Assembly (NCBI GenBank): GCA_943789275.1
Contig: CALSTM010000002.1
Location: forward strand, 150,001-182,000
Direction of reading: 5' to 3'
Origin: Candidatus Poseidoniaceae archaeon
GTDB lineage: Archaea; Thermoplasmatota; Poseidoniia; Poseidoniales; Poseidoniaceae
DNA length: 32,000 nucleotides
Shown: positions 8,568-18,886 of the stretch, piece after piece
Layout of the letters: the number at the start of each line of letters is the position of its first letter
How positions within the stretch are numbered: the stretch's first letter is position 1
Made by a program: the position numbers and the translations under genes
The notes under the pieces: model-generated
Told to the model about the DNA's origin: nothing
Seen by the model: only the letters and a program-made list of their open reading frames with translations
Database searches by the model: none

Positions 8568-8895
8568 GGTTTTGGGAAAGCATGTGACACTTCAAATGTG
8601 CTTTTGTAAATCAAATGTATAAGCTTGTGAGGAACAACCACAAGGGCTACTCCAAAAAATACCCTTGTGAAGATGCGGATCGTGTACAAGGGTGTTTAGC
8701 AAAACCCTCGTGAACAGAAGTAAATCACTTTGGTTGGCCCGCTTTGCTTGTTGTAGGAACAGCGTTGATTATCTTTGCAGCAACAAGATGGGCGAAGAAA
8801 TAGGGTCTATCCGAATACCCATTGAAACGGATTTACAATTTCAAAGGGCTTTCAATCTGTCCTTCGACAGGCTAATCTCAAAAACCGATCTACAC

Positions 8896-8964
8896 AAGGG
8901 GCCCCCTCGTAGCCGTATACGTGTACAACCGTACCGTTGAAGCGTATACGAACAAAGGGGCCCC
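8896..8964. repeat. structured repeat copy A (left island boundary)
   Basis: The 40-nt core 8896-8935 is AAGGGGCCCCCTCGTAGCCGTATACGTGTACAACCGTACC. The self-complementary blocks GGGGCCCC (8898-8905 / 8957-8964) and CGTATACG (8914-8921 / 8943-8950) can nest into a hairpin of about 67 nt. Confidence 0.8.
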
Positions 8965-8982
8965 TTATGTTTGTTCGAAAAT

Positions 8983-10044
8983 TCATGTATTCAATGACTT
9001 TAATGCATTGACGATTCTAGAAGATCTTAATCTCTTCAAATCCTTTTCATTTAAGACTTCAATTACAAATCTTCTGCTGTATAGGTTGCGTGTTGCCAAT
9101 TCATCCTTAATGTCAAAATACGTTATTTCTTGAAAACCCGGTAAGTTGCAAACAAAATCTTGATCTGAAAAAGATTGTTTTTCTTTAGTAGACTCCTCAA
9201 AGGCATAAAAATGGTTATCATCAAACCCAACAACCAACAATGGCTTTTCCTTGTTATCTGCAAGACAAACAATTTTCCCGACAAGTGATGGATTGTTAGG
9301 CTTGCCTAGTTCACCCTTGTTATCTTTTGAAAATTTGATATGCGGAAGTTCTCGAATTTTACTTATATGGTCTTCAGAAAGCCTGCCGATGACAGAATTA
9401 ACCTGTTCCGATGATATAGTGATTGGTTTTGATTCAAGACTTAAATGAGTAATGTCATTTGATGGGAGTTCAGATGAAAAAAAAGTCAAACTGTTTAGAG
9501 AACCGTCAAGTATATCACACTCTGGTAAGATCAGTAAATTACCATTTTTCAACTTCCCAACAATTACGCCTAAGTTTAAATCTTCCAATCCGATATGTAT
9601 ACTAGAATCATGTTCATTCCTAACCCAACATATCAAGTCCCATCGACTAGCATTGTTTTGCTCTGTTCTATCTGAAGAAAACCATGACCTCATTGCACAC
9701 CTTGCTAATAAGTCCTCCAACCTATCTGGATTGAGTCGCCCTATTCTAGATTTAATCTTATCAGATTTCACTCCCTTAACAATTTCCAGTTGGAAATATG
9801 TTTCGTGTTTGATTGTTCTTGCATTCTCATGCTCAATGCAATACGGAGAAACTTCAAATGAGGTGAACATCTCATTCCTAACCAACAAATGTTCCGGAGT
9901 TGGATATGATGTACCACTTAAAACAGCAATAATTTCGTCTTGGTCTTCTAGCACAATTGCGGGATGTAAAGTGCCTTTCTCATCATTCTCAAATTCAAAA
10001 TCTATCCAAACCAAGTCACCCAAATCAAAGTCATCTTCCCGCAT
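8983..10044 (-). CDS. hypothetical protein with three tandem PemK/MazF-like (SH3-fold toxin) repeats
   Basis: Repeat 1, GDLVWIDFE..GTLHPAIVLE..IIAVLSGTS...IGRLNPDRLEDLLAR, parallels the MazF pattern GDI.W.DF..G.E..+.RPA.VLS...V.PITS...IG.L....L..I. Repeats 2 and 3 keep the terminal motif (VIGRLSEDHISKIRE; VIEVLNEKDLKRLR). ATG 10044 is preferred over TTG 10059, and TTTATGAAAA lies just upstream. Confidence 0.7.
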   Translation of the reverse strand: MREDDFDLGDLVWIDFEFENDEKGTLHPAIVLEDQDEIIAVLSGTSYPTPEHLLVRNEMFTSFEVSPYCIEHENARTIKHETYFQLEIVKGVKSDKIKSRIGRLNPDRLEDLLARCAMRSWFSSDRTEQNNASRWDLICWVRNEHDSSIHIGLEDLNLGVIVGKLKNGNLLILPECDILDGSLNSLTFFSSELPSNDITHLSLESKPITISSEQVNSVIGRLSEDHISKIRELPHIKFSKDNKGELGKPNNPSLVGKIVCLADNKEKPLLVVGFDDNHFYAFEESTKEKQSFSDQDFVCNLPGFQEITYFDIKDELATRNLYSRRFVIEVLNEKDLKRLRSSRIVNALKSLNT

Positions 10045-10327
10045 ATAATCATCTTCCAATTTTCATAAACCAATTCCAGGACCAGTCTACGGGGGGAACC
10101 TCAACCACGTGATCTGTATGCTAGTATCAGCCTTCCACTGCCGATAGTACTTAAAGAAATTGATAAGCATATTATAACAATTCACAAGGGGTTCTCCATA
10201 ACACCCACTGATTCATCCTGCCCATACACATGACCTTGCTATGGGCCATATTGAACCCTAGCGTTGTATAGGACGGACATTAGTTGGAAATGAGAAAGAT
10301 TATGTTGACCTTAGCATTGAGAATAGT

Positions 10328-11188
10328 ATGGCCGCAACCATTTCTCTGGCTAATTTGGCAATTGGCGTTCTCACTGGTACAGAAGATGTGCCTGGAAATA
10401 TTCTAGAACACATCAATCAAGAGAGCGTCTCAAATCTCGATTCGGCAGGGATGGTGTGGTTACTCAAATGGGTCACGGCATTCCCGGCCTCAAACGATAT
10501 AGAACATATTTTTCAGCACCATTTTTCACAGTACCTTGAGCAAACAGAAGATCCACATGTTCTAGCTCACATGTTGTTATATGCAGATACGGTTCATGAA
10601 AATCCTTCATTAAAGACAACGATTGAAAGGAGAATAAAACACACTAATCTTCAGCACAATCAACTAATTCAATCTGCTCGGCGCTCTATTGTATTAGACC
10701 GGAGGTTTGAAGACCTTTGTGATTCAATGCCTCCACCCGATGATAATGAGGGGTATGTAGAAGATTTGAAATGGTATTCAAATAATGATGATCCATTATT
10801 CATTGGTCCATCCTATCACAGACTTATTTCTTCAGCAATATGCCAGGCACTGAGTAAAAAAATTGTTTCGGATGAACACATCGATGCACTGGAAAACATT
10901 TCATCAACTGGAGTTGAAAACGCTCTTTGTGTTGCGCAATTGCATTATTGTAACCACAATCAAACTAGATGTTTTGAAATCATTCAAGATGTAATTGATA
11001 CTGTGCATGAATTGCCTAACAATGATTCAAGTCAAAAATATGCCGAGGATTTTCGAAAAGAATGGAGGTTGGCTCATAATAATCATCTTTCAACTCTGTG
11101 GCATCCTCGAAATTTACCATGGATGAAATCAAGGCCCATTGGATACTGGAGATTGGTTTTGGATTTGGAGGTTGCGAATAATGAGTAA
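10328..11188 (+). CDS. hypothetical His-rich, predicted all-helical protein
   Basis: 286-aa ORF with an ATG start. GATTATGT-like A/T box about 21 nt upstream. Its stop overlaps the start of the downstream nuclease gene (ATGAGTAA, 8-nt overlap). Confidence 0.65.
   Translation: MAATISLANLAIGVLTGTEDVPGNILEHINQESVSNLDSAGMVWLLKWVTAFPASNDIEHIFQHHFSQYLEQTEDPHVLAHMLLYADTVHENPSLKTTIERRIKHTNLQHNQLIQSARRSIVLDRRFEDLCDSMPPPDDNEGYVEDLKWYSNNDDPLFIGPSYHRLISSAICQALSKKIVSDEHIDALENISSTGVENALCVAQLHYCNHNQTRCFEIIQDVIDTVHELPNNDSSQKYAEDFRKEWRLAHNNHLSTLWHPRNLPWMKSRPIGYWRLVLDLEVANNE
11167..11172 (+). promoter_or_regulatory. Shine-Dalgarno GGAGGT for the GIY-YIG gene
   Basis: GGAGGT lies 8 nt upstream of ATG 11181, inside the 3' end of the preceding ORF. 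This fits translational coupling. Confidence 0.6.
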
Positions 11189-12260
11189 AAAATCACGTAA
11201 GATCCCAACTTGCGGAATTTGTGGGGAATCAGGCCATAGATCGCCCACCTGTCAAAAAGTAAAATCAATCATGTTAAAATGGGAGAAATTTGCCAGTGTT
11301 GAAGATTTTATAAAAGATCAATATCTTCTCAGCCCTATTAAAAATACCTCGAAATCGACGAAGGTTGGAGGAAAACGTGAAACACTGAGGTTTGGCAAAT
11401 GTCAAGGTTGGTACTCATTAGAAAGTGATTCTGGAGTGCATTACATTGGATTGGTTGGAGAAGTCAGCTCCAAAACGAAAATTCAGTCTAAAAACTCATT
11501 TTATGAGCGTTGGTTGGGCCACTACACGGATAGTAGAAGAAGCTGGCATGATAAGGGCGGATTTGGTGCAGGAAACAATGGAACTTGGCCGAGTGACCAT
11601 CTGAAAGATGGGAAATTACTTTCAAAAAATAAATACCAATTGTTGATTAGTAAGGTGAATAATATGGCAATTGATTACGATGAAACAAGGAAGAGAACTC
11701 CAAAGCCGAAATTTATTGTCCCAGGAGTTGAACAAGCTGCGCTGATAACAAATGTAGAACAATACATGATACATCGTTATGCAAATAATCCCGCCACTCG
11801 TAAGTTTAACAAAGATACTCCAAGCGTACTAGTTGATTCAGAGGGCACTAAAGTGAGTTTCAAACCAGATAAAGAGATTTTATTCAACACCAGTAACACC
11901 AAAACCATAAATAAAACACCACCTAATATCAGAGTCAGTATTTCGCCGAAAACTGGAGTAAACATGTCCCACTTGTGCGAATTAAACGATGAAGAGAGGA
12001 CAATGAACGATTACAAAAAGACATACAAAAAAGATCTAAAAAAGCCAGCAGCGGCTGAGAAAGCACCAGCAAAGAAATCACCAGCAAAGAAATCACCAGC
12101 AAAGAAAGCAATCAGTTCGAAAAAGAAAAATTTAACCAAAGTCCAAACTTTGCGAAAAGCGAGAGAAAAGAAACAGGATACTTGGTCTTGGAACGGAAAA
12201 AGAATGGGGAAAGTGGCTAATTATGTCATCAAGAAGGGGAAAAGAGTTGCAAAAAAATAA
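11181..12260 (+). CDS. CCHC zinc-knuckle / GIY-YIG nuclease (I-TevI-like) / AKKSP-repeat basic-tail protein
   Basis: CGICGESGHRSPTC fits CX2CX4HX4C. GWY-x9-YIG is followed by FYERWLGHY (compare I-TevI FEKRWKRHF), with later acidic residues (VEQAALITNVEQ). The C-terminus is KKPAAAEKAPAKKSPAKKSPAKK. I use ATG 11181 with its SD rather than the ORF-track start at 11139. Confidence 0.75.
   Translation: MSKKSRKIPTCGICGESGHRSPTCQKVKSIMLKWEKFASVEDFIKDQYLLSPIKNTSKSTKVGGKRETLRFGKCQGWYSLESDSGVHYIGLVGEVSSKTKIQSKNSFYERWLGHYTDSRRSWHDKGGFGAGNNGTWPSDHLKDGKLLSKNKYQLLISKVNNMAIDYDETRKRTPKPKFIVPGVEQAALITNVEQYMIHRYANNPATRKFNKDTPSVLVDSEGTKVSFKPDKEILFNTSNTKTINKTPPNIRVSISPKTGVNMSHLCELNDEERTMNDYKKTYKKDLKKPAAAEKAPAKKSPAKKSPAKKAISSKKKNLTKVQTLRKAREKKQDTWSWNGKRMGKVANYVIKKGKRVAKK
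12064..12108 (+). repeat. 3 x 15-bp tandem repeat CACCAGCAAAGAAAT inside the nuclease gene
   Basis: Copies lie at 12064-12078, 12079-12093 and 12094-12108, and the last base of the third copy differs. They encode the (S)PAKK repeats. Confidence 0.9.
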
Positions 12261-12265
12261 TTGAA

Positions 12266-12294
12266 TCTGTCTTTTTTAAAAAGCAAATCACAGA
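12266..12294 (+). terminator. putative terminator: T6 run within hairpin/palindrome
   Basis: TCTGT (12266-12270) pairs with ACAGA (12290-12294) around the palindrome CTTTTTTAAAAAG (12271-12283). It starts 6 nt after the stop at 12260. An oligo-T tract is the usual archaeal termination signal. Confidence 0.4.
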
Positions 12295-12366
12295 CTAAAA
12301 GTTCCTTCTTCAACAGTCCCTGTGTATGTATACGAAGCCATGAGTAGACTCAAACATGAGTGTTAA

Positions 12367-12437
12367 AAGGGGCCCCCTCGAAGCCGTATACGTGTACAAC
12401 GGTACCCATGTGAATGCAGACGTGCATAAGGGGGCCC
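12367..12437. repeat. structured repeat copy B (right island boundary)
   Basis: The core 12367-12406 is AAGGGGCCCCCTCGAAGCCGTATACGTGTACAACGGTACC. Next comes an ATGCA-GACG-TGCAT hairpin, then AAGGGGGCCC (12428-12437), which can pair with the first GGGGCCCC block. Confidence 0.8.
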
Positions 12438-12479
12438 GTTGTGTATAATGTTTGAATTTGACAATCTGGGATTGATATC

Positions 12480-13595
12480 TCACTCTACTTCTTGAAGTCG
12501 TGTGCCGTCTCCAAGAAGGCCAACACTGCAATCGTACCCGGGATTAATGCAATTGTTGATGATGAGGTCCATGATGTCCGGGTCCCATCCATTCATCCAG
12601 TCGCCATGCAAAGATGAGCCGCTCGGGTGTGATGCATTCATGTCTGATGAGAGATACCATGTGTCCGATGGACCGGTCTCTTCCGTGACCCAGAATGCAA
12701 ATTTGTACGATATTTCAGGAATGGCTACGGGGTGTGAGTCCGGGCAATATCCCGTGCCTGTGTTTGGTGCCTCAGCGAGGATAGGATAGGACATGTGGCT
12801 GCGCTGATTTTCTGAGGTGAGATTTTGTCCATCCCAACATTGTGGAAAAACGACCCTAAACTCGAGTAATTCACCTGGTTGACATTCAGGCAAATACGGC
12901 ACATGATCCATTGGATCTCCCTCATCGAATTGAGGAGAAGGAGCCTCCCAATGTTCGCAACGATACTTCGCACTTATCACGTCTTGCGGTTCTGGTCTGT
13001 CATGACCTGCAATCATCACCAAGCCTTCAGGTGGGGCTTGAATAAGCTCCGCAGGAATATGGTAGCCGCTTTTGTAGTAAAAGAGAGGTTCAACATATTC
13101 CAGCCTGGTTCCATCTGCTGAAAACAATGATGGCACCCAATAAGCGGCTTGATTCAAAGCCACTCCTTCGCAAGTCGTTTGATCTGTTGCGTTCCTCAGT
13201 TGTTCCGTCGTGGTGTTTGCATCCGTTTCAGGGAATCCAAAGAAAACATGCTCGTGAGCAGCCCCTGTTTGTCCGGGATATACGAGAGGGTCGTCATTGT
13301 TGACATGGGATTCTGTGCAGTGTGTACGAAAATTCCCGGTTCCGTCTTCGTTGATGTAGATGTTTTCATCAGAATAAATTCTGCCTGGCTGTAGGTCGAT
13401 CTCAGGAGGGGGGTTCGTCTTTACGAGATCGCTTTCATCCTCACCATCTTCGTCTCCCTCAAACCAATCGAAGGCATCAATGGCGATGATGCTTGCAACA
13501 ATCATTAGAAGAATAGAAAAGGACGTGATTTTGGTGCCGAAGAACTTCGCTGACGTAGCAACATCGACTTCTCGGAAATTCTCAGTTTCCTCCAC
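12480..13595 (-). CDS. DUF1996 domain protein with N-terminal membrane anchor
   Basis: The TM segment is ITSFSILLMIVASIIAIDAF. The motif FRTHCTESHVNNDDPLVYPGQTGAAHEHVFFG matches the DUF1996 signature (sH...DDPIv.PG....H.H.FFG). The start is GTG, with TTATCAAT (rc of 13617-13624) exactly 21 nt upstream. Confidence 0.8.
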   Translation of the reverse strand: MEETENFREVDVATSAKFFGTKITSFSILLMIVASIIAIDAFDWFEGDEDGEDESDLVKTNPPPEIDLQPGRIYSDENIYINEDGTGNFRTHCTESHVNNDDPLVYPGQTGAAHEHVFFGFPETDANTTTEQLRNATDQTTCEGVALNQAAYWVPSLFSADGTRLEYVEPLFYYKSGYHIPAELIQAPPEGLVMIAGHDRPEPQDVISAKYRCEHWEAPSPQFDEGDPMDHVPYLPECQPGELLEFRVVFPQCWDGQNLTSENQRSHMSYPILAEAPNTGTGYCPDSHPVAIPEISYKFAFWVTEETGPSDTWYLSSDMNASHPSGSSLHGDWMNGWDPDIMDLIINNCINPGYDCSVGLLGDGTRLQEVE

Positions 13596-13616
13596 GAGGC
13601 TCCCTCGTGTTGGTTA

Positions 13617-13624
13617 TTGATAAG
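13617..13624 (-). promoter_or_regulatory. TATA-like box (TTATCAAT on minus strand) for the DUF1996 gene
   Basis: 21-nt spacing to GTG 13595. Confidence 0.4.
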
Positions 13625-13790
13625 GTATCGTACATCTTGATTTCAGAATCAAGGAAATCAAAATTCCAACATAAGTTTCATGAAAATTGTTCATTAGCAT
13701 AATCCCGATATTGAGGATTTTCATTTGCCAATCTCCAAGGGCCTCTTCACTGACCCACGGAGATAAGATTCGAATTCACAAGGGTTCGCA

Positions 13791-13828
13791 GTGGGTCGTG
13801 TTCGACGCTAGCGTCTAAAATGACCCAC
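13791..13828. repeat. 38-bp imperfect palindrome GTGGGTC-N6-GACGCTAGCGTC-N6-GACCCAC
   Basis: The outer 7-mers and the central 12-mer are perfectly self-complementary; the 6-nt spacers are not. A third GACCCAC lies at 13752-13758. Confidence 0.85.
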
Positions 13829-13840
13829 GCAAAGCCCATT
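13809..13840. repeat. left arm of 32-nt inverted repeat flanking the lipoprotein gene
   Basis: TAGCGTCTAAAATGACCCACGCAAAGCCCATT matches the reverse complement of 15139-15170 at 31/32 positions. 13809-13833 is perfect against 15146-15170. Confidence 0.9.
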
Positions 13841-13961
13841 CAAACAGCATTCGCATTCGCATGGGTATTCGGATGAACCCTTACGAATTATCCGATTCGA
13901 ATTATTTGATACATTGAAATTAATAGAAACAACTAATTGATTAACTCACTAAAATTAATCT

Positions 13962-17098: not shown

Positions 17099-18886
17099 AT
17101 GGACGAGACGCAACTGTCCCAGAATTCCGTCGCAGAACTCAAAGAAATGCTGCGCAGTAAAGGATTACCTGTCAGTGGACGCAAGGCGGATTTAATCGCT
17201 CGGCTCAGCGAATCTTCATCAGAAACAAAACAGATCTTGGACGGTGCATTCCCCTCAGAAAGAACCGTTAATCTCGAAGACGAGGAGGAACAAGCAGGCG
17301 ACTTAACGTTCAAACAACGATTGGGTGTTCAAGTCTACGGGCCCCTCAACGTTGGCGCTCTTATCGCTATTGCAATGGCTGTCATCATGGTTACAGCAAC
17401 AATTCTCGTTTTCAAGCCGACTTGGTTAGGTTTTGAACGTCAGTACGATTATGAATTGATTGATTTTGACCAAGACCAAACTCGAAATTTCGCTCAAGAC
17501 CTTGTTAACCTTGGACATCCAGATTGGGAAGGTCGAATGAGTGGAACAATTGAGGAAACAAATACCTCACAATACATACTTGGCAAGTTGCAAGACATGG
17601 GATACACACCCGAAAACAACGAGTTTCAAGTGCCAATGCATCATGTGAATTCTGAACCCAGTTTTAGACTCTGTGTCCGTGGTGTGTTAGGCGATAGCTC
17701 ACCCTGTGAAGGGTTTTTTGCGGCCGGCTCTCAAGTGACGCCTTTCCAACACCGCTCTGATTATGTCATTCAGGGATTCTCAGGCCAATCCGAATACATG
17801 TTCAATGAAGACATCATAGTCACGGACTTGGGTAACGGAACCGATGAAGCATTGTGGCAAACAGCGACTGGAACCATCGGCTATGTTCGAGGTGACAGTT
17901 CCAAGGTTGGAAACACAGAATTGTACAGCAATGCTGCAATCAACGACCTGGCAGGACTCATCAGCGTCAACAAAAACTACCAGTGCGGAAAAATTGAGGG
18001 CAACGATTGCGTACCGATTTTCAAGGGGACAAACTACGACGCCTTGGTTGAGGCAAACGGTGGAAGCCTTCCAACAGACATCCCGTTTATCTCGATGTCA
18101 AAAGATGCTGGAGATATTTTTGAAGCAATGGTCATCAACTCAAGTGAGCCTGCTTCTATAGAACTCATCATAGACGTCACCAACGACCAAGAAAGGACCA
18201 TCTATGTGCCCTGCGGTAGTATTCAAGGTCGTACCTCTGAAGTCGTGATCGCCGGTGGTCACCACGATACTGTCTACCATGCACAAGGCGCAGTGGATGA
18301 TTCCTCTGGAAGCGCAAGCATCCTTGAGATGGCTCGACAAATTGCTGAAGTCATCAATGAAACCGGAACGCCAGAGCGTACGATTCGATTCTGTACATGG
18401 GGCGGTGAAGAAGAAGGCCTGTGGGGGAGCCGAGCATATGTTGAGCAGATGCAATCCAGTCTGCGCGATAATTTGAGACTGTACATTAACCTCGACATGA
18501 ACCACGTCGACGCAGATTTTGCAAACCGTGGCAATTCACTAACATTGTTCACCAACAACCAAGACGATTATGGGCACATCGTGCGAATTACTGACCTCTA
18601 CAAACAGGAAAGAAGTGAGATTGCTGACAAATACGATATTCAATTCAGTTTACTTGATGGAGCGCAAGGCGAACCCGACCAAATGCCGTGCAATTCCGAT
18701 CACTGTCCTTTTGTCTATGACTTGGGTGGCAAGAACGGACGAGCAGTTGTGTGTTACGGCAGCGGCAGTTGGGAATACCACACGTACCTCGACACCATGG
18801 ATCGATTCAATGAAGAATCACTGGCTGTTTCAACGACTGTGTATGGGACTTACATGCGGTTGCTTGCCTACGACCTAGATGCTTGA
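17099..18886 (+). CDS. membrane-anchored M28 family metallopeptidase with N-terminal SAP domain
   Basis: The SAP motif is SVAELKEMLRSKGLPVSGRKADLIARL and the TM segment is VGALIAIAMAVIMVTATILVF. M28 zinc ligand motifs are GGHHDTV, VDDSSGSA, GGEEEGLWGS, INLDM and SDHCPF. Confidence 0.85.
   Translation: MDETQLSQNSVAELKEMLRSKGLPVSGRKADLIARLSESSSETKQILDGAFPSERTVNLEDEEEQAGDLTFKQRLGVQVYGPLNVGALIAIAMAVIMVTATILVFKPTWLGFERQYDYELIDFDQDQTRNFAQDLVNLGHPDWEGRMSGTIEETNTSQYILGKLQDMGYTPENNEFQVPMHHVNSEPSFRLCVRGVLGDSSPCEGFFAAGSQVTPFQHRSDYVIQGFSGQSEYMFNEDIIVTDLGNGTDEALWQTATGTIGYVRGDSSKVGNTELYSNAAINDLAGLISVNKNYQCGKIEGNDCVPIFKGTNYDALVEANGGSLPTDIPFISMSKDAGDIFEAMVINSSEPASIELIIDVTNDQERTIYVPCGSIQGRTSEVVIAGGHHDTVYHAQGAVDDSSGSASILEMARQIAEVINETGTPERTIRFCTWGGEEEGLWGSRAYVEQMQSSLRDNLRLYINLDMNHVDADFANRGNSLTLFTNNQDDYGHIVRITDLYKQERSEIADKYDIQFSLLDGAQGEPDQMPCNSDHCPFVYDLGGKNGRAVVCYGSGSWEYHTYLDTMDRFNEESLAVSTTVYGTYMRLLAYDLDA

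Follow-up and report, generated by a model that had tools for sequence, protein, structure and literature searches.

The stretch analysed here, hereafter the window, comprises 32,000 nucleotides (nt) of a Candidatus Poseidoniaceae archaeon (contig CALSTM010000002.1, positions 150,001 to 182,000), and the gene of interest lies on its minus strand at 8983-10044. A sequence-only reading had proposed that this locus encodes a single polypeptide with three tandem PemK/MazF-like repeats. Its coordinates match exactly a complete minus-strand coding sequence (CDS) in the list of open reading frames (ORFs), with the ATG at 10044-10042 and the stop codon at 8985-8983. The mechanically called ORF reaches further, to a TTG at 10059; homologs all begin at the ATG at 10044 (MREDDF...), and residues are numbered from its methionine. 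This is a real gene, kept full-length in about 25 metagenomic protein clusters. Its product is composed of modules of similar length, A (122 amino acids, aa), B (122 aa) and C (109 aa), joined in some relatives by a module D (110 aa). The gene and the features that bear directly on it are as follows.

8983-10044, minus strand: three-module MazF-like CDS, 353 aa plus stop
9679-10044, minus strand: module A (aa 1-122), divergent MazF/PemK domain, best conserved of the modules
9313-9678, minus strand: module B (aa 123-244), probable degenerate MazF-like module without the catalytic motif
8986-9312, minus strand: module C (aa 245-353), probable degenerate MazF-like module, paralogous to module D of four-module homologs
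9949-9975, minus strand: GTLHPAIVL (aa 24-32), equivalent of the MazF G-x-R-P-x-V-V strand, with H27 in the place of Arg
9907-9918, minus strand: SGTS (aa 43-46), with T45 aligned to the catalytic Thr of MazF
10045-10263, minus strand: conserved upstream region that moves with the gene, with a TATA-like TTTAAGTA and a leader (from blastn identity blocks and alignment)
8892-8970, no strand assigned: inverted repeat, arms 8892-8910 and 8952-8970, each with GGGGCCCC
8927-12404, no strand assigned: low-GC island of 3.5 kb with three genes (from composition, blastn and neighbour comparison)

All peptides quoted in support of the three repeats were found in the protein: GDLVWIDFE at aa 9-17, GTLHPAIVLE at 24-33, IIAVLSGTS at 38-46 and IGRLNPDRLEDLLAR at 101-115, with VIGRLSEDHISKIRE within module B and FVIEVLNEKDLKRLR within module C.

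Kinship of the modules with MazF and with one another

The first repeat had been described as MazF-like, and Pfam, PHROG, hhalign and Foldseek agree on this point. The Pfam PF02452 (PemK_toxin) profile matches module A at aa 9-115 over 102 of its 109 positions, with a score of 23.9 bits (cutoff 23.1), and recognizes 17 of the 25 family members at E<0.01 (best E 1.9e-6). The PHROG family 'MazF-like growth inhibitor' matches aa 2-115 (E 9e-6). For profile-profile comparison, a MazF/PemK reference was built from four textbook sequences, each verified as a full-length PemK_toxin match (85-131 bits), together with natural homologs from viral contigs, giving 24 non-redundant sequences. Against this reference, hhalign aligned module A over 101 columns with 95.6% probability (P 1.2e-8). 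A hidden Markov model made from these 24 sequences gave no hmmsearch match past the HMMER filters for the protein, unlike the Pfam model and hhalign. The nearest PDB sequences to module A are E. coli MazF and ChpBK. Module A is a divergent MazF/PemK domain, marginal by Pfam and solid by profile-profile comparison. It shares with MazF, PemK and Kid the fold and the motifs (a beta1 'GD-hydrophobic-W', a '(R/H)P-x-V-V' strand, a Thr-bearing strand and a C-terminal helix), and by sequence, profile and fold alike it is matched best by MazF proteins.

An AlphaFold2 model was obtained from an input of 32 rows that included divergent members and contiguous module pieces, with a mean predicted local distance difference test (pLDDT) of 83.3, modules B and C lying mostly at 76-91, and a predicted template modelling score (pTM) of 0.78, which implies defined packing between the modules. 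With 16 close homologs only, the pLDDT was 37, and searching the PDB with module C alone from this low-confidence model returned only noise. In the confident model, the three modules are predicted to share one order of elements, namely beta1, a long beta2, beta3, short elements, two to three more strands and two C-terminal helices. All of the top 50 Foldseek matches listed from the PDB are MazF/PemK proteins (E 6e-5 to 2e-3, probability 1.0), with TM scores normalised to the target of 0.52-0.74 over 109-130 aligned columns, and the top fold matches in the viral BFVD library are also PemK/MazF toxins. Several phage 'PemK-like proteins' (220-266 aa) among the BFVD matches align over about half their length, and may be other multi-domain PemK architectures.

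CcdB and MazF share a superfamily fold, and loss of the RNase Arg, described below, could hint at a non-RNase activity, such that the protein might be a CcdB-like gyrase poison instead of an RNase. We regard this as hardly credible: no CcdB profile (PF01845) matched at E<=1, although the CcdB model recognised a CcdB control with 112 bits; there is no CcdB chain among the 50 top PDB fold matches listed; and module A retains MazF-specific motif positions.

To compare the modules with one another, the family alignment was divided into A (1-122), B (123-244), C (245-353) and D, an additional module of about 110 aa that lies between the second and third segments in the relatives P0015-19, P0028 and P0029 (462-501 aa). 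Pairwise Smith-Waterman and BLAST alignments between the three segments were too weak to decide (Smith-Waterman z=3.1 for A-B, limited to the terminal strand and helix, 0.7 for A-C and 1.2 for B-C), and the profiles were compared with hhalign instead. C and D are close paralogs (P=4e-15, 101 columns, score 84; this pair lies outside the set of six that was run through controls). Module B matched the combined CD profile (P=2.6e-6, 42 columns), C (P=1.6e-5, 90 columns) and D (P=1.9e-4, 99 columns), and module A matched CD (P=9.5e-5, 99 columns) and C (P=2.4e-4, 42 columns). The direct A-B comparison (P=0.037, 32 columns, score 17) was within the noise of the controls. Indeed, for the six control pairs, column-shuffled profiles scored 11-12 +/- 2.3 (maximum 19) and reversed profiles 12-18, and the observed scores were 28-38 except for the 17 of A-B. 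Register was kept in all module-module alignments, and the hidden Markov model of each module weakly re-detects the equivalent terminal strand and helix in the others. Under the profile alignments, the DSSP secondary structure of the model agreed at 0.79 for A-C, 0.68 for A-B and 0.62 for B-C; slid alignments gave a mean of about 0.36 and maxima of 0.47-0.56, the 0.79 of A-C standing against a slid maximum of 0.56. These comparisons indicate that A, C/D and B are related, the link between A and B being transitive only. The two further segments of about 110-120 aa are real, selected modules, kin of each other and of module A at the profile level. The terminal IGRL/xxL motif proposed for all three is a true shared element of A and B; in C, only an equivalent strand-helix position corresponds to it.

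Whether B and C also descend from MazF is a separate question, and several results weigh against the reading of the whole chain as MazF-like. As single sequences, modules B, C and D matched nothing in Pfam. PADLOC gave no match to the protein, and NCBIfam nothing useful; Pfam, NCBIfam, PHROG and PADLOC searches together detect at most aa 2-120, that is, the first module only. Against the MazF profile, hhalign scores were 14.3 for B (not significant), 15.1 for C, 20.4 for D and 18.1 for CD (marginal, the last three barely exceeding the shuffled maxima of 14.5-18.4), such that direct significance is not reached. The MazF/Kid fold, an SH3-like barrel with a C-terminal helix, is present in at least one module, and the whole-protein Foldseek matches do not name which. 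These observations, together with the weak Smith-Waterman scores between segments, would be expected if only module A were MazF-derived, B and C being unrelated beta-rich domains of similar size that end in helices. The alignments themselves speak for common descent: those of C, D and CD with MazF are near full-length and in register, with 'GD(I/V)' on 'GD', 'P-x-(L/M)-VV' on 'RP-x-VV' and the terminal helices matched, the beta1-beta2 signature of C/D thereby falling on that of MazF, and MAFFT placed the 'IGD' start of C/D on the 'LGD' of module A. The in-register, near full-length A-CD, B-CD and B-D profile matches lie far above the shuffled and reversed controls, and the order of secondary-structure elements agrees in the confident model. 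We therefore judge an unrelated origin of B and C decidedly unlikely. The case for MazF ancestry of B and C is an indirect one, made up of the transitive link from MazF to A, from A to C/D and from C/D to B, and of the predicted order of secondary-structure elements.

A more distant bacterial branch (P0027, P0034 and P0035; 438-440 aa) resembles the archaeal protein in its N-terminal module, which is homologous to module A (hhalign 98.2%, P 3e-14) and keeps the His; this module matches MazF at 93.7% (hhalign). The bacterial proteins also extend into a long, beta-rich C-terminal part, and their genes are solitary in the chromosome, that of P0035 being flanked by an ABC transporter gene and by mutS on a Firmicutes-like chromosome. 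They differ in that the SGTS motif of the archaeal family is not conserved, and that their C-terminal 310 aa or so, known from only three sequences, could not be linked to B, C, D or MazF. A single-sequence Pfam scan of the P0035 modules gave no meaningful match. This family was considered as a bridge between B/C/D and MazF and was dropped, linkage being found for its module 1 alone; that it has only module A in common with the archaeal proteins counts in favor of a MazF origin restricted to A.

A rare, solitary and mosaic cassette

The proteins related to this gene product are few, all metagenomic and none named. A word-indexed search of 5.8 billion clusters returned 17 relatives, and a profile search 25. 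In an exhaustive HMMER scan of 1.84 billion representative proteins, 12 matched at E<=0.001, and among 185,579 genomes, each standing for one species, the single carrier was a Candidatus Thalassarchaeaceae metagenome-assembled genome (MAG) of Marine Group II (Poseidoniales). The architecture is thus as unusual as the sequence-only reading had supposed. We found no earlier description in the literature of natural proteins with several tandem or fused MazF modules, or of MazF in Marine Group II archaea, which is not proof of absence. Two members depart from the common plan. P0029 (contig L011, 10001-11506) bears in its module A an extremely acidic insertion of about 40 aa (…DYNEDDDDDDIYCEDDYEELNEDYTDYD…), seen in one lineage, which might mimic nucleic acid or an antitoxin tail. 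P0013 (278 aa, on a 3.3-kb contig) is a 98%-identical copy that parts from the family midway through module B, after …VIVGKLKNG, and continues in an unrelated Asn/Lys-rich tail; disruption or rearrangement of an allele is the probable cause.

Purifying selection acts on all modules, since the ratio of non-synonymous to synonymous substitution rates (dN/dS) among the window and contigs L003 and L006 is 0.24-0.59 per module (B 0.45-0.59, C 0.24-0.35). The synonymous rates differ several-fold along the gene. Between the window and L003, dS is 0.09 in A, 0.07 in B and 0.59 in C, the value for C being about seven times those of A and B in the same gene pair, which points to a separate recombination history of C. 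Between the window and L010, dS is 0.13 in A and saturated in B and C, and the 93%-identical DNA block shared with L010 consists of the leader and module A only. These several-fold differences between modules of one gene pair demonstrate that the gene is a mosaic, with a conserved head and recombining tail modules.

The 85-100 nt or so before the ATG (10045-10150) are nearly invariant across L003, L006, L010 and L011, where the proteins are only about 50% identical, and this conservation may reflect recent recombination of a head made of leader and module A. The leader holds a tiny upstream ORF (ATGAAAATTGGAAGATGA) and a Shine-Dalgarno-like stretch, GGAAGATGAT; further upstream, TTTAAGTA at 10148-10155 may be an archaeal TATA element.

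Comparison of the genomic contexts shows what moves with the gene. The low-GC island (GC 0.36-0.40, against 0.45-0.50 in most of the remaining window) is 98-99% identical, over about 8927-12404, to two contigs (L001 and L002) of one other sample, in which the flanks differ and serine recombinases (Resolvase) lie nearby. In L001, a 574-kb contig, the island copy is at the contig end, where repeated mobile DNA is often found. On contigs L003-L006, the common part is reduced to the CDS with about 220 nt upstream and about 40 nt downstream, and the neighbours are unrelated, namely a giant CARDB protein and proteins without Pfam match. The distant homolog in L011 adjoins a glycosyltransferase gene, with a radical SAM gene on the same contig. 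In the Thalassarchaeaceae MAG, the cassette abuts a homolog of the window sequence near 13805 (76-nt match of 13805-13880 with L006 425-499, 91%), which indicates that the window holds an extra 3.5 kb or so (10265-13804), including a DUF1996 gene, relative to the MAG. In conclusion, the gene moves as a solitary cassette, composed of the CDS and about 220 nt upstream, in variable islands of Marine Group II (Thalassarchaeaceae) archaea.

MazF toxins are small homodimeric proteins restrained by a separately encoded antitoxin. No small co-oriented ORF conserved with the gene across contexts was found as an antitoxin candidate, and the upstream neighbour in the window is divergently transcribed; an adjacent co-oriented antitoxin gene, the hallmark of type II or MazEF-like operons, is thus lacking. 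A 44-aa ORF that overlaps the stop codon (8852-8986) was rejected as an antitoxin, as it lies mostly outside the conserved cassette. The toxins of type III systems, ToxN and AbiQ, have a Kid/MazF-like fold and are neutralised by upstream RNA repeats. The present gene resembles them as a relative of RNase-fold toxins without protein antitoxin that is preceded by a conserved non-coding region. It differs in that the protein has no sequence or fold match to ToxN, and that the upstream region contains neither a tandem repeat array (0 by Tandem Repeats Finder) nor terminator-like sites, its leader being free of direct-repeat families. The leader had no match in Rfam, and its predicted RNA structure was less stable than that of shuffled sequence (fold z = +1.6). 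With no repeats, no Rfam match and an unstable fold, there is no ToxI-like RNA or riboswitch upstream of the gene.

Predicted activity and role

By hhalign, E24, R29, P30 and T52 of E. coli MazF correspond to E22, H27, P28 and T45 here, and R25 and T48 of B. subtilis MazF to H27 and T45. The replacement of the MazF Arg by His within LHPAIV, pointed out in the sequence-only reading, is borne out by this alignment. H27-P28 and S43-G44-(T/S)45-S46 are nearly invariant across the family, residue 45 being Ser in P0018, P0028 and P0029, and both H27 and P28 are also kept in the distant bacterial branch (P0027). Conservation falls along the protein: among lineage representatives, mean pairwise identity is 0.49 in A, 0.36 in B and 0.29 in C, with 21, 6 and 4 columns conserved at 90% or more. 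This drop from A to B to C marks module A as the functional core.

The explanation that we favor, and to which we give an even chance, is that the gene encodes a single-chain, multi-module MazF/PemK protein of the CcdB/MazF superfamily, in which a His-variant RNase-type effector (module A) is joined to degenerate partner or modulator modules, the whole being carried by a mobile solitary cassette. Module A would be the effector, having kept the MazF fold and the pocket (E22, H27-P28, S43-G44-T45-S46) with His for Arg; it would most likely bind and cleave single-stranded RNA, with His as the general acid/base. B and C, and D in the four-module relatives, would be internal duplicates of a MazF-like module that no longer have the catalytic motif. 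They would most likely replace the partner subunit or subunits of the MazF homodimer, producing an asymmetric pseudo-oligomer with one active site, and would probably also tune substrate choice or restrain the enzyme. Such a built-in restraint would explain the absence of a separate antitoxin gene. A solitary cassette in variable islands, with reshuffling of its modules, would fit a role in conflict, defence or addiction.

The observations at the active site add to the points that count against this explanation. We know of no characterised His-type MazF, and the catalytic Arg of MazF is absent here, its place being taken by a nearly invariant His. Characterised MazFs depend on both the Arg and the Thr, and cleavage is lost upon the R29A substitution (PMC10893535). 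In addition, module A is acidic, with an isoelectric point (pI) of 4.4-5.6 against a median of 9.0 in the reference MazF set. This low pI is not decisive, as the host proteome is acidic too and B. subtilis MazF is active with a pI of 5.1; several lineages have basic C and D modules. From the same facts, the protein could be seen as a catalytically dead pseudo-toxin, a MazF-derived scaffold that binds RNA or another partner and has been domesticated for regulation or sensing, with the His-Pro and SGTS motifs serving binding or folding. The essential Arg is gone in every member, a non-toxic protein would need no antitoxin, and toxin homologs that stand alone have commonly been exapted for other functions (PMC2701414). 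What speaks for an enzyme is that the pocket residues, including the Glu and Thr equivalents, are the best conserved in the protein. Many RNases use His effectively as a general acid/base. The mobile, rare and island-borne distribution is also closer to that of a conflict gene than of a housekeeping regulator. We consider loss of catalysis a doubtful explanation, although one to be taken seriously.

A further explanation, which overlaps with the favored one, is a fused toxin-antitoxin in which B and/or C keep the RNA groove of A blocked in cis and release it upon a trigger, for example proteolysis or infection by a phage. Besides the lack of a separate antitoxin gene, the pTM of 0.78 would imply tight packing between modules, and divergence and recombination are much faster in the tail modules than in the head, as would suit a sensing or regulatory part. 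By contrast, B and C appear to be of MazF type, and not of MazE/AbrB type or another known antitoxin fold, the linkers are not acidic MazE-like tails, and the protein has no known protease site or trigger. On balance, a fused antitoxin seems quite improbable. A bolder proposal combines these elements into an antitoxin-free, single-gene conflict system, in which a His-type MazF nuclease head would be served by two or three covalently attached degenerate modules acting both as pseudo-oligomer and as rapidly recombining sensor or inhibitor. Although we deem this unlikely, it would, if true, place toxin, partner subunit and regulator in one polypeptide, a new organisational type of MazF-superfamily toxins, in uncultured marine archaea.

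Returning to the explanation of a His-variant effector with degenerate partner modules, comparison with known systems defines where the protein belongs. MazF, PemK and Kid (PF02452) are homodimerising monomers of about 110 aa, in contrast to the present chain of 353 aa and three modules (four modules and 462-501 aa in relatives). The present protein further differs from them by its His in the place of the catalytic Arg, its lack of an adjacent MazE/PemI-type antitoxin gene, its acidity and its restriction to a few Marine Group II archaeal lineages. Solo MazF homologs, such as that of Myxococcus xanthus (PMC2701414), likewise have no cognate antitoxin gene alongside; the known ones are single-domain proteins with the canonical Arg, unlike the multi-module protein with His described here. 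Since it has neither the catalytic Arg, nor the form of a small homodimeric single domain, nor the operon feature of type II systems, we class the protein as an architectural variant within the MazF/CcdB superfamily and not as a MazF toxin proper.

These features raise the questions of whether a pocket with His for the essential Arg can cleave RNA, how a MazF-like activity would be controlled without an antitoxin, and whether pseudo-oligomerisation can yield an asymmetric single active site with a new specificity. MazF enzymes are being explored as sequence-specific RNases for RNA analytics (PMC13107127), for which a single-chain variant may be of practical interest. In addition, few conflict-type genes have been characterised in Marine Group II archaea, which are abundant and uncultured, and this gene would join them.

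Neighbouring genes and island boundaries

The window also contains the following features in and around the island.

10328-11188, plus strand: gene for a 286-aa protein without family match (weak dUTPase_2, E 0.03), transcribed divergently from the MazF-like gene
11139-12260, plus strand: third island gene, likely start near 11271, with a weak zf-CCHC knuckle
12480-13595, minus strand: DUF1996 protein (149 bits) with an N-terminal membrane anchor, adjoining the island
Around the island: archaeal housekeeping genes for aRF1, a NOG1-type GTPase, class I LysRS, ArgRS and ribonucleotide reductase

The left boundary of the island was placed at 8927-8953 by blastn, and is spanned by the inverted repeat. 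Its arms are 19 nt long, 84% complementary and separated by a 41-nt spacer, each with a GGGGCCCC palindrome, and the repeat lies 13 nt past the stop codon. From its sequence and position, it could be a terminator or a recombination site.

The gene for the 286-aa protein is 100% identical in L001 and L002 and is not found beside the MazF-like gene in other contexts. The zf-CCHC protein ends in a Lys/Ala/Pro-rich, histone-H1-like tail (KKPAAAEKAPAKKSPAKKSPAKK...) and has a pI of 10 amid an acidic proteome. Its relative in L002 gives a weak GIY-YIG match, which suggests that the gene may be homing-endonuclease-like.

Outside the island, the plus-strand gene at 17099-18886 encodes an M28 peptidase that carries a SAP domain at its N-terminus (E 3.9e-10). 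SAP is a mostly eukaryotic DNA-binding motif, and its presence is unusual in an archaeal peptidase.

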